DNA from: an uncultured Bacteroidota bacterium
Lineage (GTDB): Bacteria; Bacteroidota; Bacteroidia; Flavobacteriales_F; PHOS-HE28
Assembly (NCBI GenBank): GCA_902826215.1
Contig: CADEDY010000004.1
Coordinates: forward strand, 68,667-132,666
Length of the DNA stretch: 64,000 nucleotides
Reading direction: 5' to 3'
The position numbers and the translations under genes are program-made. Shown in pieces: positions 3,872-18,596 of the stretch (the stretch's first letter is position 1; every line of letters begins with the position of its first letter). Below the pieces are notes generated by a model. The model was not told where the DNA came from. It searched no databases and saw nothing but the letters and a program-made list of their open reading frames with translations.

Positions 3872-4315
3872 CTACTCCCCGATATCCTCGTTCCACAGCT
3901 CCGGCTCGGCTGCGATGAACTCCTCCATCATCTGCACACACTCCGGCAGGTTCAGGTCGATCACCTCCACGCCGTGGCTCTCCATGAAGGCCTTGGCACC
4001 AGCGAATGTGCGGCTCTCGCCCACGATCACCTTCTTGATCTTGAACTGCACGATGGTGCCCGCGCACATGTAGCAGGGCATCAGCGTCGAATAGATCGTG
4101 GTGCCCTTGTAGCTGCCGATGCGGCCCGCGTTGTTCAGACAGTCCATCTCGCCATGCAGGATCGGGTTCTTCTCCTGCACGCGCTTGTTGTGCCCCCGTG
4201 CGATGATCTTGCCGTCGCGCACCAGCACCGAGCCGATCGGGATACCGCCCTGTGAACGGCCCAAGCGGGCTTCGTCGATGGCGGCTTGCATGTGGGGGTC
4301 CATGGTGTAGGTCAT
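3872..4315 (-). CDS. CDA-fold nucleoside deaminase, Fcy1-like; probably a cytosine deaminase feeding the pyrimidine catabolic pathway
   Basis: Zinc-ligand motifs HGE (…NPILHGEMDCLNNAG…) and PCYMCAG. About 147 aa, comparable to the ~158-aa yeast Fcy1 as recalled. Located inside the pyrimidine-catabolism operon. Confidence 0.7.
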   Translation of the reverse strand: MTYTMDPHMQAAIDEARLGRSQGGIPIGSVLVRDGKIIARGHNKRVQEKNPILHGEMDCLNNAGRIGSYKGTTIYSTLMPCYMCAGTIVQFKIKKVIVGESRTFAGAKAFMESHGVEVIDLNLPECVQMMEEFIAAEPELWNEDIGE

Positions 4316-4584
4316 TTATCCGTTACATCAGCCCGAAGCACTCCAGCGTCATTCTTTCCACACATGCCGCAATACTCGGACTCATTCTTCTTGTTGTCAC
4401 ACCACTTACATCCCTTCGGATTCTTCAATGGAAATAGATGAACTATGAAGTAGCCGAATATGGGCGTGGCCAAGACGCAAATGGCCAAGGCCCCTGCAAA
4501 ACCACATGTTCGCGGTCGTCCATCCTGCCACGCCATCCCAACAACTAAGACAAGGAAAATGACACCTATGATGTAGTCCATCAA
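4312..4584 (-). CDS. Small membrane protein with a C-terminal CxxC..CxxC zinc-ribbon (hypothetical)
   Basis: Two predicted TM helices are followed by CKWCDNKKNESEYCGMCGK. Its stop overlaps the start of the deaminase (ATGA), and it sits between preA and the deaminase gene. Confidence 0.45.
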   Translation of the reverse strand: MMDYIIGVIFLVLVVGMAWQDGRPRTCGFAGALAICVLATPIFGYFIVHLFPLKNPKGCKWCDNKKNESEYCGMCGKNDAGVLRADVTDK

Positions 4585-4597
4585 ACTTGTGATCTGG

Positions 4598-5947
4598 TTA
4601 CCCTTTGTAGTGCCTTGGCTTCTTCGTCACCAACGCCTCCGCTGGCTCCGGCACCCAATGATGCAGCCCACCAGCCAGCGGATCGTCAAACGTCTTCGGA
4701 ATGTTCCCTGCCGCCGTGCGCTCACCCCAAGTCAGTTGCTCCTTGCCGTCATCGCGGCGCTCCATGGTGATGCACTCTTCCACCGGACAAACGATGGAGC
4801 AGAGGTTGCAGCCCACGCAGTTCTCCTCGATGATGCTCGGAATGCGGATCAGCGGGTCGCTGGATAGACCGATGGCCTGGTGCGCACCGTCCTCGCAGGC
4901 GGTGTAGCACAGCTGGCAGCCGATGCACTTGTCGGCGTTGATCTCCGCGACGACCTTGTACTTCAGGTTGAGGTCCTCCCAATGCACGATGTTCGGCAGC
5001 GCCTTGCCCCGGAAATCATCCAAGGTCTTGAAGCCCTTCTCGTCCATGTAGCGCTCTAGGCCTGACTTGAGATCGCGGATGATGCCGAAGCCGTAGTGCA
5101 TGACCGCAGTGCAGACTTGCACCGAGGTGGCACCGAGCAGAATGAACTCCGCCGCATCGCGCCAGTTCTCGACACCACCTATACCGCTGATGGGTATTCC
5201 CACTTGCTTGTCCTGCGCACAGTTCTTCAGCATGTTCAAGGCGATCGGCTTCACGGCCGGACCGCAGTAGCCGCCGTTCGTGCTCTTGCCATCCACGTTG
5301 GGGTATGGCACGAAGGTGTCCAGGTCCACGCCCACCACACTTTGGATGGTGTTGATCAAGGAGATCGCATCGCTCCCACCAGCCCTGGCCGCGCGCGCCG
5401 GACGCGTGATATCCGAGATGTTCGGTGTGAGCTTCGTGATCACGGGGATCTTGGCCACTTCCTTCACCCACTCAACAATGGTCTGCAACACCTTCGGCTC
5501 CTGCCCCACCGCGCTGCCCATGCCGCGCTCGCACATGCCGTGGGGGCAACCGAAGTTCAGCTCGATGCCATCGGCGCCAGCGTTCTCCACGTCGCGGACG
5601 ATCTGGTGCCATTCCTCCTTCGTCTCCACCATCAGCGAGGCGATCACCGCATGGTCAGGGAAACGCTTCTTCACCTCGCTGATCTCGCGCAGGTTGTCCT
5701 TTAACGGCCGGTCGGTGATCAGCTCGATGTTGTTGAAACCCACCATGCGCTTGTCCCGGTAGTTCACAGCGCCGTAGCGGCTGCTGACATTCACCACTGG
5801 CACGCCGAGGGTCTTCCACACGGCACCGCCCCAGCCCGCGTCGAAGGCTTTCATGATCTGGTAGCCGCTGTTCGTGGGTGGCGCGGAGGCCAGCCAGAAA
5901 GGGTTCGGGGATTTGATACCGGCGAGATTGGTTCGGAGATCGGCCAT
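4598..5947 (-). CDS. preA: NAD-dependent dihydropyrimidine dehydrogenase subunit PreA (DHOD-like TIM barrel + 2x[4Fe-4S])
   Basis: N-terminus MADLRTNLAGIKSPNPFWLASAPPTN. FMN/DHODH-like core (GADGIELNFGCPHGM). Two C-terminal ferredoxin motifs, CIGCQLCYTACEDG and CVGCNLCSIVCPVEEC. Confidence 0.9.
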   Translation of the reverse strand: MADLRTNLAGIKSPNPFWLASAPPTNSGYQIMKAFDAGWGGAVWKTLGVPVVNVSSRYGAVNYRDKRMVGFNNIELITDRPLKDNLREISEVKKRFPDHAVIASLMVETKEEWHQIVRDVENAGADGIELNFGCPHGMCERGMGSAVGQEPKVLQTIVEWVKEVAKIPVITKLTPNISDITRPARAARAGGSDAISLINTIQSVVGVDLDTFVPYPNVDGKSTNGGYCGPAVKPIALNMLKNCAQDKQVGIPISGIGGVENWRDAAEFILLGATSVQVCTAVMHYGFGIIRDLKSGLERYMDEKGFKTLDDFRGKALPNIVHWEDLNLKYKVVAEINADKCIGCQLCYTACEDGAHQAIGLSSDPLIRIPSIIEENCVGCNLCSIVCPVEECITMERRDDGKEQLTWGERTAAGNIPKTFDDPLAGGLHHWVPEPAEALVTKKPRHYKG

Positions 5948-5949
5948 TT

Positions 5950-5986
5950 GATTAGCTGATTAGCTGATGTGACGATTAGCTGATGG
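5950..5986. repeat. Left terminal inverted repeat of the four-helix-bundle gene cassette (GATTAGCTGAT x3)
   Basis: gattagctgat-tagctgat-gtgac-gattagctgatgg. Its reverse complement, CCATCAGCTAATC, recurs at 6549-6561. Confidence 0.65.
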
Positions 5987-6000
5987 TTGGCGGGCGACAG

Positions 6001-6528
6001 CTACTTGGTGGACTTCGTTCGTTCGATCAAACGTTGCTTACTCGTTCCGATGATCTTATTGAGGATGCGCATGACACGTTGGATGCGGGCGATGAGGTCC
6101 TCATCAATGCCTTTGTCTTGGGTCGCGGCGATGAGGTAATACCAATATTCGGCTTCGTCGGCTTCCTTCAACGCGATCTTCAGCTTGTGAATGAAGTCCT
6201 TCAGGCTTTCGGCATTCTGGGCTTCCTTGGAATTCGCTCCTGGCGAACATGCCGACCGCTCGAACTGGTCGATCAACCATGCGCGCTCACAACCGAGTTG
6301 GTTCACGAATCGGATTGTGCGAACGGACAATTCAAAAGTCTCCTTGAGCAGCAGGTTCTCGCGATACAACGGGCTACCGGAATAGCTGGCCTGCGGCTCG
6401 TGAGCGACCATTGCGTCAAGCTGCTCCACACGATCTTCCTCGATCACAGCATCGCAGATCGCCAGCCAATCGGAGCGATCCCCAGTGATAAACTCATCAT
6501 GCTCTTCCATCATGCCAGGCATTTTCAT
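6001..6528 (-). CDS. Four-helix-bundle protein (TIGR02436-like; 23S rRNA intervening-sequence protein family) inserted between preT and preA
   Basis: The C-terminal half, SKEAQNAESLKDFIHKLKIALKEADEAEYWYYLIAATQ, matches the hallmark of this family. A possible shorter start lies at the ATG at 6411-6409 (MVAHEPQ...). Confidence 0.75.
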   Translation of the reverse strand: MKMPGMMEEHDEFITGDRSDWLAICDAVIEEDRVEQLDAMVAHEPQASYSGSPLYRENLLLKETFELSVRTIRFVNQLGCERAWLIDQFERSACSPGANSKEAQNAESLKDFIHKLKIALKEADEAEYWYYLIAATQDKGIDEDLIARIQRVMRILNKIIGTSKQRLIERTKSTK

Positions 6529-6561
6529 CAGCTGATCCGCTAATCATCCCATCAGCTAATC
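6527..6561. repeat. Right terminal inverted repeat of the four-helix-bundle cassette (ATCAGCTGATCC...CCATCAGCTAATC)
   Basis: It is the reverse complement of the left-hand GATTAGCTGATGG. It contains the cassette gene's start codon (6526-6528) and the preT stop codon (6560-6562). Confidence 0.65.
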
Positions 6562-7882
6562 ACTTCCCCAAGTAGGTATCGATCCCATGCGCCGCCTTCT
6601 TCGCTTCAGCCGCCGCGTTCACCACTTCCACACCACCGTTCATCGCATCCCCTGCAGTAAAGTATTTGGCGTTGGTCGTTTGGAAGCGCTCATTCACCAC
6701 GATGCGCCCTTTCTGATCCAACATGAGGCCTGAGACCTGCTTCAACAGTTCCACTTGTTTTCCTTGACCGGTCCCCAGCAACACCATATCACAAGGTTCC
6801 AGGAACTCGCTGCCCTTGATGGCTTCCAGCTTCCCATTGGCGGAACTGTTCCGGATGAACTTGACCCCGGTCACGGAGCCATTGCCCATCACTTCAACGG
6901 GCGTCACATTGAACAGTGCCTTCGCACCGCTCTTCTTCGCCAGATCGAACTCGAAGGTGTACGCACCCATCTCTTCCGGACCACGACGATAGGCTATCGT
7001 CACGCTCTCCGCGCCCATCCGGCAGCTTTCGCTCGCGGCATCCATCGCTGTGTTTCCGCCCCCGAGCACGATCACCTTGTTGCCGACCGGCGTTGCTTGG
7101 TGCTTGTTCCGCAGTACTTCCACGAACTCAAGCGCACCCATCACGCCTTTCTTGTCTTCGCCGGGAATGCCTAGCGCCGAAGTGCCGCCCAAGCCGATGC
7201 CGATGAAGATGGCGTCATAGTCCTTCTCCAAGCGCTCAAAGTCAACACGACCGGTCACTGGCTTGTTGTAGTGGGCGTTGAAACCGAACTGCTCCTGCAA
7301 GTAAGCGATCTCATCAACCGCTTCTTCGTTGGTGAGCTTGTACGGTGCGACGCCATAAACACACAAGCCACTTGGCTTTTCGCGCGCCTCGTAGATATCC
7401 ACCGCGTGGCCCAACATCCGCAATTCACACGCACAGGAAACACCCGCTGGCCCCGCACCGATCACAGCTACCTTCTTGCCTGTCGGCTTCCCGGTGATGA
7501 AGAGCTTCTTCTTCGCGTGGATCACCTTGTCCGTGGCATGTGCCTGCAAGCGCCCGATCTCGATCGGCTTCACATCGCTTTTGGTGTACACGCAGGCCCC
7601 TTCGCACAGTTCCTCCGTCGGACAGACGTTCCCGCAGGCATGTCCCATCCAGTTGCTGTCGTAGATCGTCTTCGCGGCCCCGTCCTTGTTGTCGTTGTTG
7701 ATCTGCCGGATGAAGGTCGGGATATCGATCCCCGTGGGGCACGCGTTGATGCACGGCGCATCGTAGCAATACAGGCAGCGCGAACTCTCGTAGTACGCCT
7801 CGGTATCGCTCATCAGCGGCTTCTTCGGGTGGAAGTTGGCTGTGAACTCGGCTTCGGTGGTGGGTCGTTTGTATTCTGCCAT
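6560..7882 (-). CDS. preT: Dihydropyrimidine dehydrogenase subunit PreT (glutamate synthase small-subunit-like, FAD/NAD(P) + [4Fe-4S])
   Basis: MAEYKRPTTEAEFTANF...YCYDAPCINACPTGIDIP...CGNVCPTEELCEGAC, followed by Rossmann motifs VAVIGAGPAG and VIVLGGGNTAMD. The six-frame track starts this ORF at 8110, but the 76 codons upstream of 7882 merely translate the tandem DNA repeat, so the start is placed at 7882. Confidence 0.88.
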   Translation of the reverse strand: MAEYKRPTTEAEFTANFHPKKPLMSDTEAYYESSRCLYCYDAPCINACPTGIDIPTFIRQINNDNKDGAAKTIYDSNWMGHACGNVCPTEELCEGACVYTKSDVKPIEIGRLQAHATDKVIHAKKKLFITGKPTGKKVAVIGAGPAGVSCACELRMLGHAVDIYEAREKPSGLCVYGVAPYKLTNEEAVDEIAYLQEQFGFNAHYNKPVTGRVDFERLEKDYDAIFIGIGLGGTSALGIPGEDKKGVMGALEFVEVLRNKHQATPVGNKVIVLGGGNTAMDAASESCRMGAESVTIAYRRGPEEMGAYTFEFDLAKKSGAKALFNVTPVEVMGNGSVTGVKFIRNSSANGKLEAIKGSEFLEPCDMVLLGTGQGKQVELLKQVSGLMLDQKGRIVVNERFQTTNAKYFTAGDAMNGGVEVVNAAAEAKKAAHGIDTYLGK

Positions 7883-7887
7883 GGGGA

Positions 7888-7934
7888 ATGGGACGCAGAT
7901 GGCGCGGATCTTTATGATTTCCGCTGATATGATT
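7888..7934. repeat. ~47-bp repeat element, copy 1 of a tandem pair with 80-bp period (gggacgcagatggcgcggatctttatgatttccgctgatatgatttg)
   Basis: Direct repeat of 7968-8015. Member of the GATGACGCGGATC family. Lies immediately upstream of the preT start. Confidence 0.7.
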
Positions 7935-7967
7935 TGTCGGTGTGGTGCGTGGGGTGCTTCATGCGAT

Positions 7968-8015
7968 GGGACGCAGATGACGCGGATCTTTATGATATCC
8001 GCTGATATGAGTTTG
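7968..8015. repeat. ~47-bp repeat element, copy 2; left inverted repeat of the GxxExxY cassette
   Basis: gggacgcagatgacgcggatctttatgatatccgctgatatgagtttg. The reverse complement of its core is found at 8421-8449. Confidence 0.7.
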
Positions 8016-8409
8016 TATGGACCTTCCTTTTGACTTGGGGCTTCTTGCCGAAGTTCAGGAGCAAGCCGACTTCCACATCGGTGGCTTTGAGGTAGTTGAT
8101 CAACTGGCACTCGTGCTCTTCGCAGATGCTCTCCGCAGCTTTGAGTTCCACGATGACCAGTCCCTCGACGATAAGGTCGGCATAGTAGCTACCGACCTCC
8201 ACGCCATCATAGAACACCGTGATCGGTTGTTGACGCTTTACCTCGAGCCCAGCGGAGATTAACTCATGGAACATGGCGTTCTCATAGACCTTTTCCAAAA
8301 ACCCGTAGCCCAAGGCGTTGTAGACCTTGTAGAACATCTGAATGACCTGCTCGGTCAGTTCAGAATGCATGTAGTTCTCTTTATTCAGATCAGGCATGGC
8401 AATTCGCAT
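7990..8409 (-). CDS. GxxExxY protein (TIGR04256-like, PD-(D/E)XK-related) inserted between the beta-ureidopropionase gene and preT
   Basis: YKVYNALGYGFLEKVYENAMFHEL ... VIVELKAAE ... GLLLNFG match the family signature. The 3' end of the ORF runs into repeat copy 2. Confidence 0.75.
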   Translation of the reverse strand: MRIAMPDLNKENYMHSELTEQVIQMFYKVYNALGYGFLEKVYENAMFHELISAGLEVKRQQPITVFYDGVEVGSYYADLIVEGLVIVELKAAESICEEHECQLINYLKATDVEVGLLLNFGKKPQVKRKVHTNSYQRIS

Positions 8410-8420
8410 TGATCCGCGCT

Positions 8421-8449
8421 CATCATAAAGATCCGCGTCATCAGCGTTC
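8421..8449. repeat. Right inverted repeat of the GxxExxY cassette (catcataaagatccgcgtcatcagcgttc)
   Basis: It is the reverse complement of gaacgctgatgacgcggatctttatgatg, which is copy 2 at 7968. Confidence 0.7.
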
Positions 8450-9315
8450 TACAACTCCGTCAGCCGTCCATACGTCTCCGGCCTCCGATCCCTGAAGAAC
8501 TGCCATGTGCTCCGCACCTCCTCGATCATGTCCAGGTCGAATTCTGCGACGAGCAGTTCATCGTCATCACGCGAGGCTTGCTTGAAGATCTGTCCGCGCG
8601 GATCCACGAAGTAGCTCTGCCCATAGAACTTGCCGAGGTTCCAAGGCTTCTCCTCCCCTACACGGTTGATGCAGCCCATGAAGTAGCCGTTCGCCGCAGC
8701 GTGCGCGGGTTGCTCCAGCTTCCAGAGGTATTCGCTGAGACCAGCCACGGTGGCGCTGGGGTTGTAGACGATCTCGGCACCGTTGAGGCCAAGGCAACGC
8801 GCGCCATCGGGGAAATGGCGGTCGTAGCAGATGTACACGCCCACCTTGGCGTACTTCGTCTGGAACACCGGATAGCCGAGGTTGCCGGGCTTGAAGAAGA
8901 ACTTCTCCCAGAAACCGCTCGTGTGCGGGATGTGGTTCTTGCGGTACTTGCCCAGGTAGGTGCCATCCGCATCGATCACCGCGGCGGTATTGTACAGCAC
9001 GCCGGCCTGCTCCTTCTCGTAGATCGGAACGATGATCACCATGTTGTACTTCTTCGCGTACTGCGCCATCAGCTCCGTGGTGGGACCGGGCACGCTCTCC
9101 GCGCTCTCGTACCATTTCCGGTCCTGGCCCGGGCAGAAGTAGGGCGTGTTGAAGATCTCCTGCAAACACAGGATCTGCACGCCTTGCTGGCCGGCCTTCT
9201 CGATGTACGGGATGTGCTTCTGCACCATCGCATCGATGATCTCCGGTATGGTGCCTTCGCCCTCCGTCTTAGGGAGGCTCATCTGGATAAGGCCGCTCTT
9301 GATGTTCCTCGGCAT
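8449..9315 (-). CDS. Beta-ureidopropionase (N-carbamoyl-beta-alanine amidohydrolase), nitrilase/CN-hydrolase superfamily
   Basis: CN-hydrolase fold with the catalytic Glu-Lys-Cys context (…ILCLQEIF…, …YRKNHIP…, …VGVYICYDRHFPD…). Sits in the pyrimidine-catabolism operon. Confidence 0.85.
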   Translation of the reverse strand: MPRNIKSGLIQMSLPKTEGEGTIPEIIDAMVQKHIPYIEKAGQQGVQILCLQEIFNTPYFCPGQDRKWYESAESVPGPTTELMAQYAKKYNMVIIVPIYEKEQAGVLYNTAAVIDADGTYLGKYRKNHIPHTSGFWEKFFFKPGNLGYPVFQTKYAKVGVYICYDRHFPDGARCLGLNGAEIVYNPSATVAGLSEYLWKLEQPAHAAANGYFMGCINRVGEEKPWNLGKFYGQSYFVDPRGQIFKQASRDDDELLVAEFDLDMIEEVRSTWQFFRDRRPETYGRLTEL

Positions 9316-9327
9316 GGGTTGAATGAT

Positions 9328-9370
9328 TGGAACGCTGATGACGCTGATTTAGGTGATCCGCGCTGATGGG
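9328..9370. repeat. ~45-bp repeat family copy (atggaacgctgatgacgctgatttaggtgatccgcgctgatggg)
   Basis: Direct repeat of 9444-9491. Located immediately upstream of the beta-ureidopropionase start. Confidence 0.6.
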
Positions 9371-9443
9371 TCTTGGGTTGCTGGAACCAATGTTAAGAGG
9401 AAGTACGCGCATTTCCTAGACTGGTCCAGGTGGGTGCGGAAGG

Positions 9444-9491
9444 ATGGAACGCTGATGACGCGGATTAGGCTGATCAACGCGGATCTAAGGG
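9444..9491. repeat. ~45-bp repeat family copy (atggaacgctgatgacgcggattaggctgatcaacgcggatctaaggg)
   Basis: Shares the GAACGCTGATGACGCGGAT core. Confidence 0.6.
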
Positions 9492-9519
9492 ACTGTTGGG
9501 TTGGACTAGGGTGATGTTT

Positions 9520-9610
9520 GGGCGTGCCCCTCGCAAAAGCCTCGGGTCGGGCTATCCGCTATACTCCTCGCTCGTTCCTCGCTGCGGGGTGCCGCTTCTA
9601 TCCCTCAGGC
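9520..9610. repeat. ~95-bp intergenic repeat family, copy 1 (GGGCGTGCCCCTCGCAAAGCCTCGGGTCGGGCTATCCGCTATACTCCTCGC...CTGCGGGGTGCCGCTTCTATCCCTCA)
   Basis: Near-identical to 11771-11897. Matches 14836-14933 and 10136-10262 in reverse complement. Confidence 0.7.
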
Positions 9611-9632
9611 AAGCGCTATAATATCAACCATA

Positions 9633-10121
9633 TCACCGGACTGGCCTATCCAATACTCGCAATGCCGCATCCGTAAGATTCGTCCGAGCAGGATGCCCCA
9701 TTCCTAAGAAGACCTTGAGCTTTTCGCCTAGAGTTTCTGGGGCAAGATCCTCCACGCTCCACATTGCTTGTCCCATCACTTCCGGAGGCCACAGCAACAT
9801 TGTGTCCCACCTTGCTGAACCCGTAAGTCTCGATGCAATTTCAGTCCCCAAGTACTCCGTGAGCAACTGCAACATGACCTCTCTTCCCTTTGCGTAAAAG
9901 GAGACCTGTTTGCAGTCCTTCTTCGACATGTAGAAGACGATAAACCAATCATCAATAACAGGTCCTTCCGCCGTCGTGTATTCTCCGATCAGGCGAACAT
10001 CGCTCAACACGATTTCCCCCACACGTTCGCCTTGGATCTCCCAAATCAGCTTACCACCCTCGCTGAAGACTCTACCCGAGAGTTCGGCTTCATCTCGCTC
10101 GGTCTTGCTCTTGACAGTCAT
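9633..10121 (-). CDS. Hypothetical cytoplasmic protein (no recognisable domain), start placed at MTVKSK
   Basis: 162-aa ORF between the beta-ureidopropionase and dihydropyrimidinase genes, flanked on both sides by copies of the ~95-bp repeat. The longer 198-aa ORF in the track would begin inside a repeat copy. Confidence 0.4.
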   Translation of the reverse strand: MTVKSKTERDEAELSGRVFSEGGKLIWEIQGERVGEIVLSDVRLIGEYTTAEGPVIDDWFIVFYMSKKDCKQVSFYAKGREVMLQLLTEYLGTEIASRLTGSARWDTMLLWPPEVMGQAMWSVEDLAPETLGEKLKVFLGMGHPARTNLTDAALRVLDRPVR

Positions 10122-11897: not shown

Positions 11898-13552
11898 AGC
11901 ACACGTTTACCCTTCAACGCCCAATACACGGCGAACGCCACACCCGTTCCGCTGAACCACGAGAGCGTGTAGAGGACCTCCAGCGGCTTCACCCAATATC
12001 CGATGATGGCAACGAACACACCAGCCACCAAAGCCACGATGGCTGCTCTGTTCACACCCGCGTGCGGTCCATCCTCCATGTACAGGTCAGCGATCACCAA
12101 CGTGCGCTTGCGGATGATAAAGTAGTCGCAGAGCAGGATGCCGAGCACGGGGCCGAGCAGTCCGCTGATGAAGATGAGGATCCCGCTGATCTCGTTCATC
12201 AACCACCACGGGCAGATGATGATGCCAACGAGTCCCGCCATAACACCACCAACACGGAAGCTGATCTTCTTCGGGAACAAATTGCTGAACGCATTCGCCG
12301 GTGCGATCACGTTCGCCGCGATGTTGGTGCTGAGCGTAGCGATGAGCATGGCGATCTGCGCGAAGATGACCACACCCGGGCTCTTGAACTTGTCCACCAG
12401 CGAGACCGGATCCCACGGCGCATCCTCGGCGATGAGCACATCATCGAAGGCCACCACGGCCGCGCTGGTGACGAAGATGCCCACGAACGAATAGAAGAGC
12501 ATGGTTCCCGGTAGCCCGATGAACTGTCCGGCTAACTGGTCCTTCTGGCTCTTCGCATGGCGTGTGATGTCGGAAATACTGATGGACATGGTGGCCCAGA
12601 AACCGACCATGGCGGTGAACCACATCAGGTATTGCCAATAGCCGACCTCGCTTGCACCGGCACTGTCGGCCTTGAACTCCAGCTTGGCCGACTCATGACC
12701 TTCCGCATCCTTGAACTGGATTTGCACCTGCGCATCCATGCCGATGTTGATTGCGGTCATCGGCGCGGTGATCGGCATCCATTCGCCCGGCCTGGTTTCG
12801 TTTTGCCTTGGATAGCTCAACCGATAGTGTGTGGCCTTCGGCGTGCCATCGGTGTTCAAGAGCGGTGACAATTGTAACGTGCGGCCGGGCGCATCGGCGT
12901 AAGGCAACTGCGTGATCGTGCTTTGCTGTAATTGCTTCCCTTGCTCCAATGCATTGGCAAAACCACCCGCACTATTCGCGCCCCACACGATCAGCACGAT
13001 GCCGATCAGGATCAATATCGGCGCACTCCAGTCCTCGAGCCAACGGATGCTCTCGGTGCCTTTCCAGATGAACCAGATGTTGATGAGCCAGAACACGCCG
13101 AAGCAGATGAACTTGCCGATGCTCAGCGCCACATCACCTTCCTGACCTGTTGCCGCGTTCCAGATGGAGTAGATCGCCAGCCCACCGATCCACGTCTGCA
13201 CACCGAACCAGCCGCAGGCGACGATGGCGCGGAGCAGACTCGCGATATGGATGCCTTGCGTCCCGAAAGCCGCTCGCCCTTGCACGGGGAACGGGATACC
13301 GTACTTCACGCCCGCATGACCGTTCAATACCATCGGTATGGTGATCACCAAGTTCGCCAGGCCGATGATCACCAAGGCCGCCCGCCAGCTGAGGCCCGCA
13401 CGCATCATGTACGAAGCGAGCAGGTAGGTGGGGATGCACACCGCCATGCCCACCCACAGCGCGGCGAGGTTCCACTTGGTCCAGGTGCGCTGCTCGGGCG
13501 GGATGGGCGCGAGGTCCGGGCTGTAGAGCGGGGAACGGGTGATATCTTCCAT
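11885..13552 (-). CDS. NCS1-family nucleobase:cation symporter (cytosine/uracil/hydantoin permease-like) with a ~95-aa hydrophilic insertion
   Basis: 12 predicted TM segments with the NCS1 pattern (…WNLAALWVGMAVCIPTYLLAS…, …GIPFPVQGRAAFG…). Start assigned to MEDITRSP at 13552. An alternative ATG 15 codons upstream at 13597 is not excluded. Confidence 0.8.
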   Translation of the reverse strand: MEDITRSPLYSPDLAPIPPEQRTWTKWNLAALWVGMAVCIPTYLLASYMMRAGLSWRAALVIIGLANLVITIPMVLNGHAGVKYGIPFPVQGRAAFGTQGIHIASLLRAIVACGWFGVQTWIGGLAIYSIWNAATGQEGDVALSIGKFICFGVFWLINIWFIWKGTESIRWLEDWSAPILILIGIVLIVWGANSAGGFANALEQGKQLQQSTITQLPYADAPGRTLQLSPLLNTDGTPKATHYRLSYPRQNETRPGEWMPITAPMTAINIGMDAQVQIQFKDAEGHESAKLEFKADSAGASEVGYWQYLMWFTAMVGFWATMSISISDITRHAKSQKDQLAGQFIGLPGTMLFYSFVGIFVTSAAVVAFDDVLIAEDAPWDPVSLVDKFKSPGVVIFAQIAMLIATLSTNIAANVIAPANAFSNLFPKKISFRVGGVMAGLVGIIICPWWLMNEISGILIFISGLLGPVLGILLCDYFIIRKRTLVIADLYMEDGPHAGVNRAAIVALVAGVFVAIIGYWVKPLEVLYTLSWFSGTGVAFAVYWALKGKRVLREG

Positions 13553-13621
13553 GCGACTTGTTCGGTACAGCAATGTAATCGGAATCGAACGTTCCATTCG
13601 GAAGCGTGTACTTCGTACTGC

Positions 13622-14338
13622 ATGGGCCGCCTCACCACCCTACTCCTTATTTGTACACTCCTGTGCGTTTCGACCGTTCGCGCACAAAAGACAGTCTACT
13701 TCCCCGTGCGTGGTGTGACCTGGCCGGTATGCGAAAGCGTACCCGATGCCTTTGTCCATCGCGTACGCCACGTCCTCGCCGATAGCGCGAAGATGTTCCC
13801 CGAATATCCGGACCCGGTGCCCTTCACCTGCGACCTCCTCAAAGGCCTTCAAGAAGCGATGACCGATGATTCCGTACGCTACCACTTCGAGCGTCTGTCG
13901 CAGCGCTATTGGTCGGTCGGTCCCCACTATAACAACGTAGAGCGCTACATCGATCGACACATTGACTTTCACTTGGCCATCGCATGCACAGGGCACTTCT
14001 TCTGCGACGTGCGCATCATGGGCCTGAAGAAGCTCTACGACTACCGACGCATGCGGCCGATGGTTTGCGCGACGCAAGAGCACTACGTCCAATTGGAAAA
14101 GCAGGATCGGCAAGCCGTGCGCTACCTGATCCATGTGCTGGAGAACACGCCGTGGAGCATCAGTGGCAGCGAGAACGCGACCATCCACGAGGTCTACATC
14201 CGGGAGATCGCCAAGACGCTCGATCTGTTCACCGGACAAGAACACGTCGACCCCAAGGATCTGCGGCAGTACCTGCCGCTCACCGATGAGAAGTTGCGCG
14301 TAGCGCTGATCGATTGGCGGAAATGGCTCGACCCATGA
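13622..14338 (+). CDS. Secreted hypothetical protein (signal peptide MGRLTTLLLICTLLCVSTVRAQ)
   Basis: The longer track ORF 12932-14338 overlaps the permease on the opposite strand. The first ATG followed by a signal peptide is at 13622. Confidence 0.5.
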   Translation: MGRLTTLLLICTLLCVSTVRAQKTVYFPVRGVTWPVCESVPDAFVHRVRHVLADSAKMFPEYPDPVPFTCDLLKGLQEAMTDDSVRYHFERLSQRYWSVGPHYNNVERYIDRHIDFHLAIACTGHFFCDVRIMGLKKLYDYRRMRPMVCATQEHYVQLEKQDRQAVRYLIHVLENTPWSISGSENATIHEVYIREIAKTLDLFTGQEHVDPKDLRQYLPLTDEKLRVALIDWRKWLDP

Positions 14339-14832
14339 GGTGTTTGTTGATCCTTGCATTCTGTACCGCGAACGCCTTGTGCGCGCAGGATGCTGATGCC
14401 CTGGCACGAGCACTTGAACGCAAGAGTCCACGCGCATTGGACCGCTGGATGAAGCGCGAACTGCATGAGCACCGCAAAGGCACGCGGATAACCTCACCGG
14501 GTAGTAGCTACACGAGCCACTCCGCTACCTACGACACCCTTGTCGCTTGGCTGCGGCTACAACCCGGCGTGGTGGATGCCGAATGGGACCGCTGCATCGG
14601 CAAGCTCGATCTCTGGCCAGGGCACTCCACCATCGGTGTGCAGGTGCGGCTTGGTGGTGTGGTGCGCGAGCGCTGCTACACGTTGCAGGAAGGACGGCCC
14701 GGCACCATCAAACTACCCGGCTGGCGGCCGAAAGTGCGGAAGACGCGGGAAGAGTTGAAGCTGGTGGGGATAAGGGAATGCGCGGGGTTCGTGACGGAGC
14801 AGCGAGGGTATTGCGCGGGGTTGTCGCGATGA
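14335..14832 (+). CDS. Secreted hypothetical protein (signal peptide MRCLLILAFCTANALCAQ)
   Basis: Its ATG overlaps the upstream stop (ATGA at 14335-14338), indicating translational coupling with the preceding gene. Confidence 0.45.
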   Translation: MRCLLILAFCTANALCAQDADALARALERKSPRALDRWMKRELHEHRKGTRITSPGSSYTSHSATYDTLVAWLRLQPGVVDAEWDRCIGKLDLWPGHSTIGVQVRLGGVVRERCYTLQEGRPGTIKLPGWRPKVRKTREELKLVGIRECAGFVTEQRGYCAGLSR

Positions 14833-14835: not shown

Positions 14836-14933
14836 AATTCGCGTGAGCGATCGAAGTGGAAAGCCCACAGCGAGGCACGAGCGAGGACTTGCAACGAAGA
14901 GCGCGACCCGAGGCTTTGCGAGGGGCACGCCCC
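14836..14933. repeat. ~95-bp repeat family, copy 3 (reverse orientation)
   Basis: The reverse complement ggggcgtgcccctcgcaaagcctcgggtcgcgctcttcgttgcaagtcctcgctcgtgcctcgctgtgggctttccacttcgatcgctcacgcgaattcc matches the 9520 and 11771 copies. Confidence 0.65.
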
Positions 14934-14935
14934 AA

Positions 14936-15313
14936 TTAGAAAGATGGATCACCGCGACGCTGCAAATCCGCAACAGCTCCTGTGCATGAGAGAATCCAGG
15001 AGCCCATTTTGGCAAAGTCCAAGCTGAAGGCCACAGTATCCTTACCAGTTTCGATATCGAACATCTCAGGCCGCGAAATGGAGAGAAGCCATCCACCAAC
15101 AACCGAACCGGCTTCAGTTCCGTTTGATTCGACGATCTCGGCTTGAGAGAACGTGAGCTTCAGTCGACGATGTTCTGAAGTTAGGATAATCACGATCGTA
15201 GGACCCATGCGAAGGTCTTCGATCACGAAGTCCCGAATGTCCAGTTCCTCCTCGTTGATCACGAAGTCCACGACTGGAACGAAACCTACGACGTCGATGA
15301 GATCAAAGACCAT
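14936..15313 (-). CDS. Hypothetical acidic protein, last gene of the beta-alanine/pyrimidine operon
   Basis: Open frame abutting the aminotransferase stop. No recognisable motif. Confidence 0.35.
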   Translation of the reverse strand: MVFDLIDVVGFVPVVDFVINEEELDIRDFVIEDLRMGPTIVIILTSEHRRLKLTFSQAEIVESNGTEAGSVVGGWLLSISRPEMFDIETGKDTVAFSLDFAKMGSWILSCTGAVADLQRRGDPSF

Positions 15314-16665
15314 CACACACACGCTTCATCCGCGATCGCTATCGCCTTGCTCAAGATCTCCATCCCCTCATCCACCCCCGCCTTGTCGATGCACAGCGGC
15401 GGCGCGACGAAGATCCAGTTCCAACGCACGAAGGTGAACATGCCCAGCTCGTTGATCTTGGCGGCCACCTTGTTCATCACTGTCATTTCCTCGGGCTTCG
15501 CGTTCCACGGCGCCATCGGCTCCTTGGTGTCGCGGTTCTTCACCAGCTCGATGCAACCCAGCAGGCCGGTGTTGCGGAAGTCGCCGATGCTCGGGTGCTT
15601 CTCTGCCAGCTTCGCCACGCTCTCGTCCACGTAGCGACCCATGTTGGCGGCGTTGGTCACGAGGTGCTCTTCCTTGTAGATGTCGATGACGGCGTTCGCG
15701 GCGGCGCAGGCCACGGCGTGCGCGCTGTAGGTGAGGCCGATGGGCAGCGGCTTGTCGTCGAAGTGTTTGATGATCTCCTCGCGCACGATGAGGCCGCCAA
15801 GCGGGATGTAGCCGCTGGTGATCCCCTTCGCCATGCACAGGATGTCCGGCACCACGCCGTGGTGGTCGATGCCGAACCATTTGCCGGTGCGCCCGAAGCC
15901 GCTCATCACCTCGTCGCAGATGGTGAGGATGCCGTAGCGGTCCGCGATGGCCTTCACGCCTTTCCAGTAGCCCGGCGGGTATTTGATGCAACCGCTGCTG
16001 CCGCTCTCGCCTTCCAGCATGATCGCCGCGATGTACTGCGGGCCTTCATACTTCACGATGCGCTCCAGGTGCGACAGCGCGTTCTCCGTGCATTCCTCCG
16101 GCGTTTTGCTGTTCCACGGGCAGCGGTAGAAATACGGGTTCTCCACGTGGATGATGTTCGGCACGCCCTGGCTGTCGTGCGGCAAGCCGCGCGGATCGCC
16201 ACCGGCGCTAAGCGCTCCGTACGTGGCACCGTGGTAGCTCTGGTACAGCGTGATGATCTTGTGCCGGCCGGTGTACAAACGCGCGAGCTTCATCGCGTGC
16301 TCCACCGCCTCGGTGCCGCCGTTGGTGAAGAAGGTGCGGTTGAGGGACCCAGGCGTGATCTCCGCCAACGTCTTGCCCAGTTTACCGCGCGCCTCGGTGA
16401 TCATGCCCGGATGCACGTAGCTCACCTCGGCCATCTGCTTCGCCACCGCCTCCGCCACTTTCGGATGCCCATGCCCGATGTTCACGTTCATCAGCTGCGA
16501 ACTGAAGTCGATGTAGCGTTTGCCGCTTCGATCGTGCAGGTAAATGCCCTTGGCGCGCTCGATGTTCAGCGGGGCCAGACCGCTCTGCTTGCTCCAGGAG
16601 AAAATGGTGTGCTCGAGATTGTCCTTGAGGATCTCGGCGGGGTTCACCCGAAATGAAGTTTCCAT
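15313..16665 (-). CDS. Class-III (omega) aminotransferase, likely beta-alanine:pyruvate transaminase
   Basis: PLP fold-I class-III pattern (…TNGGTEAVEHAMKLAR…, …DEVMSGFGRTGKWFG…) with the lysine context CMAKGITSGYIPLGG. Co-operonic with the semialdehyde dehydrogenase. Confidence 0.85.
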   Translation of the reverse strand: METSFRVNPAEILKDNLEHTIFSWSKQSGLAPLNIERAKGIYLHDRSGKRYIDFSSQLMNVNIGHGHPKVAEAVAKQMAEVSYVHPGMITEARGKLGKTLAEITPGSLNRTFFTNGGTEAVEHAMKLARLYTGRHKIITLYQSYHGATYGALSAGGDPRGLPHDSQGVPNIIHVENPYFYRCPWNSKTPEECTENALSHLERIVKYEGPQYIAAIMLEGESGSSGCIKYPPGYWKGVKAIADRYGILTICDEVMSGFGRTGKWFGIDHHGVVPDILCMAKGITSGYIPLGGLIVREEIIKHFDDKPLPIGLTYSAHAVACAAANAVIDIYKEEHLVTNAANMGRYVDESVAKLAEKHPSIGDFRNTGLLGCIELVKNRDTKEPMAPWNAKPEEMTVMNKVAAKINELGMFTFVRWNWIFVAPPLCIDKAGVDEGMEILSKAIAIADEACV

Positions 16666-16668
16666 GCT

Positions 16669-17160
16669 CTAATTCTCAACTGGTCCGACATCCATGCCGT
16701 CGTATGACTCCAACCCCAATTCATCCGCAAGCTTGTACAGTTCGCCATTTCGGATGTGCAAGGACTGCGGTGTATGTGTCTCGATTCGCTCCACGTGGAG
16801 CCAATGTGTGCTCATATCATCCGCCTGATACACTTTAACGAAATGATAACCTCGCCCACTAAGTTCCTTAGCAGCACTCTCCAACTTCTCAGGGTTTGGA
16901 TCAGTGAAGAAATAGCCCCAAAGCATGTCTCCATCAACGTTCCATTTGGTTTCAGCGCGCATGTTCGCAAACATGTCCTTCATCTGCTCAAGGGTCATCT
17001 TCTCTTTCTGTTTCTGGGTCGTGCTATAGTCGCCTGCAACTTCGGTTGTACACGCACTGAAGACCGCAGCGCCAACCATCGCAGTGGCCAAGTGCAAGAT
17101 TTCGTTCGGGAATACTCGACTAGTCACGACATCCAATTGGTTTTGCCTTCCGGATTCCAC
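16669..17160 (-). CDS. Putative lipoprotein with an RraB-like (regulator of RNase activity B) domain; hypothetical
   Basis: Lipobox-like LATAMVGAAVFSAC. C-terminal segment WGYFFTDPNPEKLESAAKEL...GYHFVKVYQ resembles RraB/DUF695 proteins. The start is uncertain (17160 or the ATG at 17079). Confidence 0.4.
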   Translation of the reverse strand: MESGRQNQLDVVTSRVFPNEILHLATAMVGAAVFSACTTEVAGDYSTTQKQKEKMTLEQMKDMFANMRAETKWNVDGDMLWGYFFTDPNPEKLESAAKELSGRGYHFVKVYQADDMSTHWLHVERIETHTPQSLHIRNGELYKLADELGLESYDGMDVGPVEN

Positions 17161-18596
17161 TTCGTCGTGGTCTTCTTCAACTGCGTCCAGAACTCGATGC
17201 TGCTCTTTCCGGTGATGTCACAGGTACCGAACTTGCTGTCGTTCCAACCACCGAAGCTGAAGGGCTCGCGCGGCACGGGAACACCGATGTTCACGCCGAT
17301 CATGCCGGCGCTGGCGCGTTCCATCACTTGGCGGGCTTGTCCGCCACTTTGCGTGAAGACCGCGGCTGCGTTGCCATAGGGATTCTCGTTCTCGATGGCG
17401 ATGGCGGCGTCCAGGTCCTTCGCCCGCACGATGCTTATCACCGGTCCAAAGACCTCTTCCTGAGCGATGCGCATGTCGGTGGTCACGTGATCGATGATCG
17501 TGGGTCCGAGGTAGTAGCCGTCCTTCGCACCGCCTTCAACAGAAGGGTTGCGACCATCAAGGATGACCTTGGCCCCGGCCTTTTCCGCTTCAGCGATGAA
17601 ACCGGTGATGCGTTCGTACGCAGCCTTGCTGATCACCGGTCCCAGGTTCTTGCCGGGGATGAGCTTCTTCGCTTCGATGATCATCTGGTCGATGATGTGC
17701 TCCACGCCCCCTACACCGACCATCTGCGCAGCGGCCATGCAGCGTTGTCCCGCGCATCCGCTCATGCTGGCGACCACGTTGCTTGCGGTCATCTCCAAGT
17801 GCGCGTCTGGCAACACGATCAGGTGGTTCTTCGCGCCACCGAGGCAGAGTGCACGCTTCAAAGTGCTGGTCGCACGGACGTATACGATCTTGGCCACCTT
17901 GGTGCTTCCCACGAAGCTCACCGCCTTGATACCCGGATGATCGCAGATCGCTTCCACGATCTCGCGGTCACCGTTCACCACGTTGAAGACGCCATCGGGT
18001 AATCCTGCTTCCTTCAACAGTTCCGCAATGCGGATAGCGCTGATCGGCACCAATTCGCTTGGCTTCAGGATCATCGTATTCCCGAGCATCAGCGCGTTCG
18101 GGATGGTCCAATGCGGCACCATGTTCGGGAAGTTGAACGGCGCGATGCTTGCCACCACGCCCAACGGCTTCCGCTCAATGCGGCACTCCACCCCTTTGCT
18201 CACCTCCAGCACTTCACCCTGGATCAGCTGCGGCAGGCTGCAGGCGAATTCGGTCAGTTCCATGCTCTTATCCACCTCGGCGTACGACTCGTCCATCGTC
18301 TTGCCGTTCTCGGTGTGGACCAATGTGGCAAGCTCTTCACGATTCTTCCACAGCAGCTCGCGGTAGCGGAAGAAGATCTGCGAGCGTTCCTTGATCGGTG
18401 TGCCGCTCCAACCGGGGTAAGCAGCCTCTGCGGCTTTTACGGCTCTATCCAGATCATTGGCATTGCTGAGCGGGACCGTTGAGATGATGGAACCATCCAA
18501 AGGTGATCGCACATCCATCTTCTTCTGCCCGTTCACTTCGGGCTTACCCGCGATGTAGTTCTTGGTCTCGGGATAGGATAGGTCGGTGGTTGCCAT
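17124..18596 (-). CDS. mmsA: CoA-acylating methylmalonate/malonate-semialdehyde dehydrogenase (MmsA/IolA family)
   Basis: Aldehyde-dehydrogenase motifs (…KPSELVPISAIRIAELLKEAGLPDGVFNVVNG…, catalytic LGGAKNH...Cys region) and MmsA-type N-terminus MATTDLSYPETKNYIAGKPE. Start placed at the ATG at 18596 rather than the overlapping longer ORF in the track. Confidence 0.85.
   Translation of the reverse strand: MATTDLSYPETKNYIAGKPEVNGQKKMDVRSPLDGSIISTVPLSNANDLDRAVKAAEAAYPGWSGTPIKERSQIFFRYRELLWKNREELATLVHTENGKTMDESYAEVDKSMELTEFACSLPQLIQGEVLEVSKGVECRIERKPLGVVASIAPFNFPNMVPHWTIPNALMLGNTMILKPSELVPISAIRIAELLKEAGLPDGVFNVVNGDREIVEAICDHPGIKAVSFVGSTKVAKIVYVRATSTLKRALCLGGAKNHLIVLPDAHLEMTASNVVASMSGCAGQRCMAAAQMVGVGGVEHIIDQMIIEAKKLIPGKNLGPVISKAAYERITGFIAEAEKAGAKVILDGRNPSVEGGAKDGYYLGPTIIDHVTTDMRIAQEEVFGPVISIVRAKDLDAAIAIENENPYGNAAAVFTQSGGQARQVMERASAGMIGVNIGVPVPREPFSFGGWNDSKFGTCDITGKSSIEFWTQLKKTTTKWNPEGKTNWMS

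Follow-up and report, generated by a model that had tools for sequence, protein, structure and literature searches.

Bacillus megaterium is said to convert uracil to acetyl-CoA with the products of one gene cluster, PydA1/A2, PydB, PydC, a beta-alanine aminotransferase and a malonic semialdehyde dehydrogenase. Pyd clusters containing the last two enzymes have been described (PMC7332683; Zhu et al. 2020 AEM, cited there and, by title, in PMC12074574). In an extended Pyd pathway attributed in PMC7332683 to Yin et al. 2019 JBC, PydD is a beta-alanine:2-oxoglutarate aminotransferase and PydE a malonic semialdehyde reductase. The same secondary account (PMC7332683) presents Escherichia coli as having PreT/PreA without the remainder of the pathway, and credits Hidese et al. 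2012 with a TetR-type repressor, PydR, for the pyd genes of Pseudomonas putida.

The locus described here lies in a Flavobacteriales MAG, at positions 3872-18596 of the window, the 64-kb stretch of DNA that was analysed. The original prediction had placed seven enzyme genes and a permease there, and ORF and domain searches located all eight on the minus strand, together with a pair of plus-strand genes:

17124-18596, minus strand: MmsA, CoA-acylating (methyl)malonate-semialdehyde dehydrogenase (TIGR01722, PF00171)
15313-16665, minus strand: class-III (omega) aminotransferase (AT), presumed beta-alanine aminotransferase, PydD-like (PF00202)
13622-14338 and 14335-14832, plus strand: opposite-strand gene pair encoding proteins of 238 aa and about 165 aa, each with a signal peptide (ORF calls)
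11885-13552 (or 13597), minus strand: NCS1 nucleobase:cation symporter (PF02133)
10332-11711, minus strand: dihydropyrimidinase (Dht), D-hydantoinase family (TIGR02033 equivalog)
8449-9315, minus strand: predicted nitrilase-superfamily beta-ureidopropionase (bUP), 288 aa (CN_hydrolase)
6560-7882, minus strand: PreT/PydA1, FAD/NAD(P)H + 2x[4Fe-4S] subunit of dihydropyrimidine dehydrogenase (DPD) (Fer4_20 + Pyr_redox_2)
4598-5947, minus strand: PreA/PydA2, FMN + 2x[4Fe-4S] subunit of DPD (NF006183 equivalog)
3872-4315, minus strand: Fcy1-type cytosine deaminase, 147 aa (Pfam dCMP_cyt_deam_1; yeast cytosine deaminase structures)

This locus is the Bacteroidota counterpart of the published B. megaterium uracil-to-acetyl-CoA Pyd cluster. 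The predicted chemistry is the same, and a split DPD, dihydropyrimidinase, ureidopropionase, aminotransferase and CoA-acylating semialdehyde dehydrogenase are likewise clustered. The phylum differs, the Bacteroidota set also includes a permease (NCS1) and a cytosine deaminase (Fcy1), and cargo genes and hairpin repeats break up the locus. Subfamily-level tests upheld the predicted pathway and its completeness, from cytosine or uracil to acetyl-CoA with a permease, and we put at roughly 0.85 the probability that the locus encodes the extended reductive route of pyrimidine catabolism (Pyd) in its Bacteroidota form. The gene identities stand at the family or subfamily level and are accompanied by conserved order; from these we infer substrates, cofactors and physiology.

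Conservation was assessed in 81 related Bacteroidota loci, whose sources include Flavobacteriales, Flavobacterium, Chitinophagaceae and Saprospiraceae. Throughout this set the core genes recur in the order MmsA-AT-NCS1-Dht-bUP-PreT-PreA, with 49-76 loci preserving the adjacent gene pair at each junction, so that the clustering exceeds chance. The cluster is an ordinary, widely conserved Bacteroidota set whose products would import uracil or cytosine and degrade it to acetyl-CoA, and a compact version is found in Flavobacterium terrisoli (L032, 5486-15038). AT and NCS1 are separated by a median of 66 nt in most related loci, without plus-strand genes. The plus-strand pair that lies between the AT block and the permease in the window was also called independently in a public copy (L081) and is 85-88% identical at the amino acid level in another locus (L004). 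The prediction of a one-strand supra-operon holds in that all pathway genes are on the minus strand, but the genes at 13622-14832 interrupt it, so that at least two transcription units take the place of a single unbroken one.

PreA reaches 678 bits against a cut-off of 335 in the NF006183 PreA equivalog model, matches the C-terminal half of pig DPD at 280 bits versus 107 bits for dihydroorotate dehydrogenase (DHODH), and ends in the 2x[4Fe-4S] domain typical of DPD. PreT combines Fer4_20 ("DPD domain II") with Pyr_redox_2 and passes none of the NCBIfam equivalog models. Both subunit types of the Pyd-cluster DPD, the FMN subunit and the FAD/NAD(P)H subunit, are thus present, and in 60 related loci PreA comes directly after PreT. 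As in the two-subunit E. coli PreT/PreA enzyme, an NADH-dependent DPD whose genes compared here are annotated as NAD+-dependent DPD subunits, and unlike eukaryotic DPYD, the protein is split into two genes; PreA is 45% identical to its E. coli counterpart and PreT 33% over its full length. The two PreT proteins differ at the second dinucleotide site, where the second Rossmann beta-2 strand ends: the window protein reads "...IAYRRGPEEM", a type shared with NfnB and GltD chains, and E. coli PreT reads "CVAREELDE" (VARE). The YRR-type site presumably points to NADPH. This suggests that PreT/PreA of the window may use NADPH, and the predicted NADH dependence, given the low identity to E. coli PreT and the NfnB/GltD-type site, is unsupported.

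The predicted final hydrolysis to beta-alanine resembles the eukaryotic DPYD-DPYS-UPB1 route in using a nitrilase-fold beta-ureidopropionase. Dht scores 586 bits in the TIGR02033 equivalog model (cut-off 393), as expected for the dihydropyrimidinase of a Pyd cluster. Among solved proteins, the CN-hydrolase matches beta-ureidopropionases of Drosophila (212 bits) and human (206) best and N-carbamoylputrescine amidase next (193), a margin of only about 20 bits; its score in the AguB equivalog model, 246 bits, is below the cut-off of 410. It is found downstream of Dht in 76 loci, among which it is 83-99% identical, and is predicted to be the beta-ureidopropionase of the Pyd set, with the small margin over N-carbamoylputrescine amidase just given. 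It differs from the eukaryotic enzymes in having no N-terminal extension of ~70 aa, alignments beginning at residue 69-90 of the eukaryotic chains.

Fcy1 resembles the yeast enzyme rather than the CodA amidohydrolase type. It matches yeast cytosine deaminase structures over its full length (118 bits, versus 74 for TadA and 45 for guanine deaminase), and the alignment of residues 9-147 retains the zinc and catalytic motifs HGE (H-x-E) and PCxMCxG (PC-x-x-C), GHN, and the C-terminal W-x-EDIGE lid. The features of the CDA fold are accordingly complete: zinc ligands H, C and C, the catalytic E, the substrate-binding N and the C-terminal W/D lid. Among the 81 loci, Fcy1 joins the cluster in 16, at three different positions, which points to a functional link with the pathway. 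The permease matches PF02133 in two stretches (294 bits) and scores 321 bits in TIGR00800 against a cut-off of 353. Its start is likely M16 of the 570-aa ORF, and one loop carries an insertion of ~90 aa, on both sides of which the protein is 45-47% identical to the equivalently placed permease (485 aa) of Flavobacterium terrisoli.

For the steps beyond beta-alanine, MmsA scores 516 bits in TIGR01722 (cut-off 448.5), the semialdehyde dehydrogenase of a Pyd cluster, and AT, downstream of MmsA in 49 loci, belongs to the NF004718 subfamily (533 bits, cut-off 472). In contrast to the B. megaterium cluster, the nearest solved relative of the window AT is the taurine:2-oxoglutarate aminotransferase 6jix (341 bits), a match that leaves the predicted beta-alanine:pyruvate specificity unsupported; AT is presumed to act on beta-alanine. 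As in the PydD/PydE pathway, a class-III aminotransferase would extend the reductive route past beta-alanine, but here the semialdehyde would pass to a CoA-acylating dehydrogenase, for carbon assimilation, rather than being reduced to 3-hydroxypropionate.

Three other readings of these genes were weighed against the Pyd assignment. PreT and PreA might be an Nfn- or glutamate-synthase-like NADPH oxidoreductase and a biosynthetic dihydroorotate dehydrogenase, with no pyrimidine reductase among them, and the best NCBIfam and PDB matches of PreT are indeed NfnB/GltA/GltD-type proteins (260 bits for the best solved relatives, NfnB-type, versus 149 for the N-terminal half of pig DPD), all under their cut-offs. 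We consider this scarcely credible. PreA exceeds its equivalog cut-off two-fold and obtains only 194 bits, against a cut-off of 270, in the best-scoring dihydroorotate dehydrogenase model, and it carries the DPD-typical iron-sulfur domain, which settles in favour of PreA a check that the original prediction had proposed; in at least 60 loci, moreover, the PreT/PreA pair lies downstream of Dht-bUP. The locus could instead be a hydantoin-utilisation (hyu-type) cluster, in which 5-substituted hydantoins and not pyrimidines would be the substrates of a hydantoin permease (NCS1), a D-hydantoinase and an N-carbamoyl-D-amino-acid amidohydrolase. TIGR02033 spans D-hydantoinases as well as dihydropyrimidinases, allantoin permeases are the next-best models for the NCS1 protein, and D-carbamoylases are detectable as relatives of the CN-hydrolase; these, however, score 92-96 bits where beta-ureidopropionases score 206-212. 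PreT/PreA are always in the cluster, and the aminotransferase and MmsA usually, none with a role in hydantoin use, and the co-occurrence of Fcy1 also argues against a hydantoin cluster, which we regard as very improbable. Somewhat less remote, though still improbable, is a mainly anabolic role, in which uracil would supply beta-alanine for pantothenate and CoA synthesis and would not be catabolised to acetyl-CoA. PMC7142369 reports that the beta-alanine synthase of uracil degradation feeds pantothenate synthesis in some bacteria. Against this, two beta-alanine-consuming enzymes (AT and MmsA) in conserved order and an uptake permease fit catabolism; the anabolic and catabolic roles are not mutually exclusive.

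Under the Pyd reading, the NCS1 permease would import uracil, cytosine or thymine, and the Fcy1-type deaminase would convert cytosine to uracil. The split flavo-iron-sulfur enzyme PreT/PreA would reduce uracil to dihydrouracil, probably with NADPH, after which dihydropyrimidinase would open the ring and the eukaryote-type (nitrilase-fold) beta-ureidopropionase would release NH3, CO2 and beta-alanine. The class-III aminotransferase would then yield malonate semialdehyde, and MmsA would convert this to acetyl-CoA; thymine taking the same route would give propionyl-CoA.

Pathway coding sequence makes up only 67% of the 14.7-kb span. The unusual feature of the locus is that a third of it consists of unrelated small "passenger" genes and hairpin repeats:

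16669-17079, minus strand: RraB-domain protein, 136 aa (PF06877, E=3e-11)
14936-15313, minus strand: acidic 125-aa orphan ORF (a125), its start overlapping the AT stop by 1 nt
14836-14912, plus strand: Flavo-1-like copy between convergent genes (RF01705, 33.6 bits, E=7e-4)
11765-11905, minus strand: Flavo-1-like copy at the NCS1/Dht junction (repeats D8, D18, I2; weak RF01705 match, 24.7 bits)
9327-10328, minus strand: cargo cassette at the Dht/bUP junction with an orphan 162-aa ORF (9633-10121)
7888-8453, minus strand: cargo cassette with a GxxExxY PD-(D/E)XK gene, 7990-8370 (PF13366, TIGR04256)
5949-6562, minus strand: cargo cassette with a four-helix-bundle/23S-rRNA-IVS gene, 6001-6528 (PF05635, TIGR02436)
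4312-4584, minus strand: CxxC...CxxC protein (90 aa, two TM helices), overlapping the Fcy1 start by 4 nt
3765-3871: "empty" family-A hairpin, two inverted copies of GGAACGCAGATGACGCGGAT..., closing the gene string directly 3' of the Fcy1 stop codon

The interspersed small genes of the original prediction (a CxxC membrane protein, a 162-aa ORF, an RraB-domain protein and an acidic ORF, here of 125 aa) are all present, but its list omitted the four-helix-bundle and GxxExxY genes. Ancestrally the genes probably formed one compact operon of some 9.5 kb, which in this genome has grown to 14.7 kb through insertions at almost every gene junction; because of the 1.2-kb opposite-strand insert there are now two units or more, one running from MmsA through RraB and AT to a125 and another from NCS1 to Fcy1.

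Two repeat families occur among these inserts. Family-A arms share a 20-nt core, GGAACGCWGATGACGCGGAT. The empty hairpin folds as RNA at -49.2 kcal/mol (z=-4.7), and the same family-A arrangement lies downstream of Fcy1 in a related locus (L001). The second family is best described as Flavo-1-like: its copies match the full-length Rfam Flavo-1 model (RF01705) in sequence, with helices mostly kept, but at 34.7, 33.6 and 24.7 bits (E=3.5e-4, 7e-4 and 0.2 in a 17-kb search) none reaches the gathering threshold of 42 bits.

The locus had been predicted to encode no pathway regulator, and Pfam and NCBIfam searches found a DNA-binding domain in none of its ORFs. In this it differs from the P. putida pyd genes, which also serve reductive pyrimidine catabolism: neither the window cluster with its immediate neighbours nor any related cluster inspected has a detectable DNA-binding domain, TetR/RutR-like or otherwise. 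It had further been proposed that control might run through the repeated intergenic motif. Acting in cis, as an operator or riboregulator, the motif would explain the missing regulator gene. Within the 64-kb window the family-A copies, eight in number, and the Flavo-1-like copies do all fall inside the pathway locus, but the two presumed promoter regions (18597-18698 and 13553-13621) contain none; copies lie instead at internal junctions and past the final gene, in inverted pairs that enclose cargo genes, and the motif is absent from 70 of the 81 related clusters. The exact family-A 20-mer also occurs in >120 metagenome contigs, the majority with no link to pyrimidine genes (about 70 of the 80 examined have no pyrimidine gene nearby), and Flavo-1 matches in F. 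psychrophilum are sense or antisense and in many cases untranscribed (PMC9723704). A control function of the motif is thus hardly tenable: the repeats show neither the promoter or leader location nor the co-distribution with the pathway expected of a pathway operator, and they belong to inserted elements. Because several ORFs have no domain detectable with Pfam or NCBIfam, an unrecognised regulator may exist in the locus. Since neither this locus nor the related clusters encode a recognised regulator, the pathway is presumably controlled in trans.

Cargo genes that share the orientation of the operon and are flanked by inverted repeats recur at its junctions. The four-helix-bundle cassette is bounded by repeats at 5949-5985 and 6526-6562 (I12, I15), and the GxxExxY cassette by family-A arms at 7966-8013 and 8400-8453, a further copy of the arm lying at 7888-7935 (I9, I10); the arms of the latter pair over long range in the MFE fold. 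I9, I10, I12 and I15 thus place a PF05635 or GxxExxY ORF within a long inverted repeat, as in 23S rRNA intervening sequences (IVS; PF05635), except that the window cassettes lie between protein-coding operon genes and not in rRNA. In related loci, flanking inverted repeats were significant for 27 of 35 testable PF05635/GxxExxY cargo genes. We tentatively suggest, as a possibility that falls well short of an even chance, that operon junctions are landing sites for promoter-less, hairpin-bounded cassettes carrying GxxExxY PD-(D/E)XK, four-helix-bundle (IVS/Avd-like) or orphan ORFs, which would insert strictly co-directionally, ride on operon transcription and possibly be excised from the polycistronic RNA at their long stems like 23S rRNA IVS. 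The arm core is unchanged across the 80 contigs, whose GC content ranges from 29% to 64%; if this reading is true, such constancy would imply that a conserved protein recognises the core, as part of a dedicated mobilisation or processing system.

The 90-aa CxxC protein has no family match and no homologue in related loci, and the RraB-domain protein was not found in related loci either. The Dht/bUP cassette has family-A arms at 10275-10328 and 9444-9491, an extra copy at 9327-9374, and Flavo-1-like copies at 9541-9615 and, in part, at 10136-10177. Its 162-aa ORF belongs to a family of only 6 members in 5.8 billion proteins, one homologue, 76% identical, occupying the same slot of another locus (L203); in three further loci (L009, L010 and L012) the arms are present and the cargo is absent. 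The family of the acidic 125-aa ORF has 5 members, with homologues in unrelated contexts.

The genes of the pyrimidine pathway claimed in the original prediction for 3872-18596 are confirmed to be present; pathway coding sequence makes up only 67% of this 14.7-kb span. The source is a Flavobacteriales metagenome-assembled genome. Its dihydropyrimidinase (Dht) shares 99% identity with that of Flavobacteriales bacterium UBA7690, and a public Logan contig carries an identical copy. The genes of the locus are as follows.

17124-18596, minus: MmsA, CoA-acylating (methyl)malonate-semialdehyde dehydrogenase
16669-17079, minus: RraB-domain protein
15313-16665, minus: class-III aminotransferase (AT)
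14936-15313, minus: 125-aa acidic ORF
13622-14338 and 14335-14832, plus: two ORFs between the 125-aa ORF and NCS1
11885-13552, minus: NCS1 permease
10332-11711, minus: Dht
9633-10121, minus: 162-aa ORF
8449-9315, minus: CN-hydrolase, beta-ureidopropionase (bUP)
7990-8370, minus: GxxExxY protein
6560-7882, minus: PreT
6001-6528, minus: four-helix-bundle protein
4598-5947, minus: PreA
4312-4584, minus: 90-aa membrane/CxxC protein
3872-4315, minus: Fcy1-like deaminase

A 285-aa minus-strand ORF at 13640-14497 was rejected as a gene, being arginine/histidine-rich and devoid of domain matches, and the called and conserved ORFs of that region lie on the opposite strand. Directly beside the cluster, at 492-3790, stand a plus-strand VIT/VWA protein and then the exosortase XrtN (TIGR04476, 269 bits against a cut-off of 200), while the opposite flank holds YajQ, a DUF3667 protein and a large ORF without a family match. 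All of these flanking genes appear unconnected to the pathway.

The assignment to pyrimidine degradation holds, with PreA, Dht, MmsA and the aminotransferase each passing a family model. PreA reaches 678 bits in the NCBIfam PreA equivalog (cut-off 335), shares 45% identity with E. coli PreA, and scores 280 bits against the C-terminal half of pig dihydropyrimidine dehydrogenase (DPD) versus 107 against dihydroorotate dehydrogenase B. Dht scores 586 against 393 in TIGR02033, MmsA 516 against 448.5 in TIGR01722, and the aminotransferase 533 against 472 in subfamily NF004718. The alignment of the deaminase with yeast Fcy1 is full-length (118 bits, versus 74 for TadA) and keeps the zinc ligands, catalytic Glu, substrate Asn and C-terminal W-x-EDIGE lid. 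The nearest relatives of the CN-hydrolase are the Drosophila and human beta-ureidopropionases (212 and 206 bits), with N-carbamoylputrescine amidase close behind at 193 bits; the protein falls below the AguB equivalog cut-off (246 against 410). Judged by its sequence, PreT is the weakest of the enzyme assignments: it has the DPD-type Fer4_20 and Pyr_redox_2 domains and 33% full-length identity to E. coli PreT, passed no NCBIfam equivalog model, and finds its best solved relatives in NfnB-type subunits (260 bits; pig DPD scores 149). The scenario named beforehand as a refutation, in which the pair would be a glutamate synthase small subunit (GltD) and a biosynthetic PyrD, fails for PreA because that protein passes its equivalog but no dihydroorotate dehydrogenase model (best 194 bits, cut-off 270). 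For PreT, the GltD reading is ruled out mainly by gene context.

Two details of the predicted biochemistry, an NADH-dependent DPD and a beta-alanine:pyruvate aminotransferase, are unsupported. The second dinucleotide-binding site of PreT reads '...VTIAYRRGPEEM' and is of the same type as that of NfnB and glutamate-synthase small-subunit chains, unlike E. coli PreT, which has a VARE-type site ('VTCVAREELDE') at the corresponding position. Basic residues at this position of such sites favour NADPH, and the YRR motif of PreT accordingly predicts, from sequence, a preference for NADPH. One published account reports that the DPDs of Pyd pathways studied so far use NADPH and that E. coli PreTA, which uses NADH, lies outside any Pyd pathway (PMC7332683). 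The NfnB-type site and this use of NADPH therefore leave NADH dependence without support. As for the amino acceptor, the best solved relative of the aminotransferase is a taurine:2-oxoglutarate enzyme (6jix, 341 bits), other class-III/omega transaminase chains scoring at most 270 bits, which leaves pyruvate unsupported as the acceptor.

A Dht-based genome scan yielded 80 loci, or 81 with the Logan copy, spanning Flavobacteriales, Flavobacterium isolates, Chitinophagaceae, Saprospiraceae and others. Among them the order MmsA, AT, NCS1, Dht, bUP, PreT, PreA is kept, with 49, 57, 66, 76, 66 and 60 adjacent pairs at the successive junctions; Flavobacterium terrisoli packs all seven genes into 9.5 kb, leaving small gaps between them. 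Fcy1 lies within the cluster in 16 loci and takes three positions (ahead of MmsA, ahead of Dht or following PreA), which suggests that the cytosine entry step was recruited repeatedly. In the Flavobacterium isolates a 411-aa protein is encoded directly downstream of PreA (15358-16593 in L032, 15245-16480 in L056). Its N-terminus looks, by eye, like that of an M20-type hydantoinase/carbamoylase-family amidase, so that it could be a second carbamoyl-amino-acid hydrolase beside the nitrilase-type bUP.

Pyd clusters with a beta-alanine aminotransferase and a malonic semialdehyde reductase or dehydrogenase, among them the uracil-to-acetyl-CoA pathway of Bacillus megaterium, are described in two earlier papers (PMC7332683, PMC12074574). 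Because such extended clusters are already in the literature, the window locus belongs to a known type. The value of the pathway itself is modest: the import of pyrimidines and their breakdown to acetyl-CoA are annotated with good support for many soil, freshwater and activated-sludge Bacteroidota, a conserved seven-gene order is documented, and three biochemical points become testable, namely the DPD cofactor, the amino acceptor and an insertion of ~90 aa in one loop of the permease. This insertion (residues ~212-312, counted from M16) is shared by the window's close relatives and by the related locus L046 (555-574 aa); the permease of ~485 aa that occupies this position in clusters of Flavobacterium and Chitinophagaceae lacks it.

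The locus was originally described as a single-strand unit, a description that does not survive the finding that the plus-strand ORFs at 13622-14832 interrupt it. Both ORFs encode signal peptides; the public copy has independent gene calls for them, and one relative conserves them at 85-88%. The presence of these genes here, coupled with a median spacing of 66 nt between the aminotransferase and permease genes in most related loci, indicates that an ancestral single operon has been split in the window into at least two units. Scans for sigma-70-type promoters and intrinsic terminators returned fewer sites than shuffled controls and none at the junctions. No exact match to the Bacteroidetes −7 consensus TAnnTTTG exists in the locus, and the one-mismatch candidates that visual inspection turned up ahead of MmsA and NCS1 are too weak for use. 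Rfam models, run over both the locus and the whole window, detected no riboswitch or leader, only Flavo-1-like copies.

The view that no pathway regulator is encoded is supported: the eight non-pathway proteins of the locus have no DNA-binding, defence or phage family match (Pfam, NCBIfam, PADLOC, PHROGs), PADLOC and PHROGs giving nothing meaningful, and no conserved flanking regulator gene was found in eight loci inspected. Control had instead been tentatively ascribed to a repeated intergenic motif. Two repeat families are present, A and the Flavo-1-like B, the latter with three full copies and one partial copy.

3765-3871, 7888-8013, 8400-8453, 9327-9491 and 10275-10328: family-A elements
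9541-9615 (minus), 11791-11905 (minus), 14836-14912 (plus) and 10136-10177 (partial): the window's only Flavo-1-like copies

Neither family acts like a pathway operator, and the idea of regulation by these repeats is corrected. The 20-nt family-A core, GGAACGCWGATGACGCGGAT, occurs eight times in the 64-kb window, always within the locus, but has no copy in either presumed promoter region and, with up to 3 mismatches allowed, is found in only 11 of the 81 related clusters. The exact 20-mer turns up in over 120 metagenome contigs. GC ranges from 29 to 64% in the 80 that were examined; ~70 of these have no pyrimidine gene nearby, 6 adjoin GxxExxY genes, and many carry perfect ~100-nt hairpins of 9-nt NNCGCNGAT units. 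The full family-B copies score 34.7, 33.6 and 24.7 bits against Rfam Flavo-1, below the threshold of 42. In F. psychrophilum, the Flavo-1 motif matches in sense or antisense and many copies are untranscribed (PMC9723704).

Family A takes the form of empty ~100-nt hairpins or of arms around small genes. In the window, inverted arms surround the GxxExxY gene and the 162-aa ORF, with extra tandem arms, and downstream of the last gene lies an 'empty' hairpin (−49 kcal/mol, z=−4.7). A separate inverted repeat flanks the four-helix-bundle gene. At the Dht-bUP junction of three related loci (L009, L010, L012), the same two arms abut the Dht stop and the bUP start and enclose a loop of ~120 nt, while those of the window enclose the 162-aa ORF and Flavo-1-like copies. 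Inverted Flavo-1-like copies also bracket the 162-aa ORF, and an inverted pair at 11765-11811 and 14892-14938 (87% complementary) brackets the NCS1 gene and the two plus-strand genes.

These junctions constitute a separate lead, more interesting than the pathway. Insertions longer than 300 nt occupy 118 of 374 junctions (~32%) in the related loci. Among them are 31 four-helix-bundle and 12 GxxExxY genes, all 43 co-oriented with the operon, and significant inverted repeats flank 27 of the 35 that were testable. Others resemble, from their N-termini by eye, ORF6N-, IS200/RAYT-, DUF1016/YhcG- and HEPN/MNT-type proteins; precomputed Pfam matches confirmed a YhcG/DUF1016 protein in one such slot of L203, a locus with an orphan-ORF homologue. 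This pattern resembles the ORF-bearing intervening sequences (IVSs) of 23S rRNA, which gave Pfam PF05635 its name. By this analogy, the data suggest that hairpin-bounded, promoter-less cassettes may colonise operon junctions; we infer that they may be mobile as units and their stems processed. In the window, 5949-6562 and 7888-8453 display an IVS-like cassette pattern within an mRNA-coding operon. In a literature search on GxxExxY and four-helix-bundle IVS proteins, none of the titles found was obviously on operon-junction cassettes. In close relatives the junctions of one and the same operon are 'empty', 'hairpin-only' or 'hairpin plus cargo', a clean comparative system in which the colonisation of operons by small selfish genes, and its effect on polycistronic mRNA, could be studied.

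Three cargo genes, those for the RraB-domain protein and the 125-aa and 90-aa ORFs, lie tight against pathway genes (spacings −4 to 44 nt); others are flanked by inverted repeats. Cargo turnover is very fast: L001, whose Dht and bUP are 99% identical to those of the window, has different inserted genes at nearly every junction, including a membrane protein in place of the RraB-domain gene, a four-helix-bundle gene in place of GxxExxY, and three opposite-strand genes of ABC-type efflux appearance (by eye) between PreA and Fcy1. The ORFs of 162 and 125 aa are genuine genes, though orphans outside the pathway, their families numbering 6 and 5 proteins in 5.8 billion, with remoter members in unrelated contexts. 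Distant homologues in L205 (134-4262) and L207 belong to tandem series of small genes that share a strand and lack domains. The arrangement recalls arrays of variable small proteins and suggests that these cargo ORFs are drawn from a pool of shuffled small genes.
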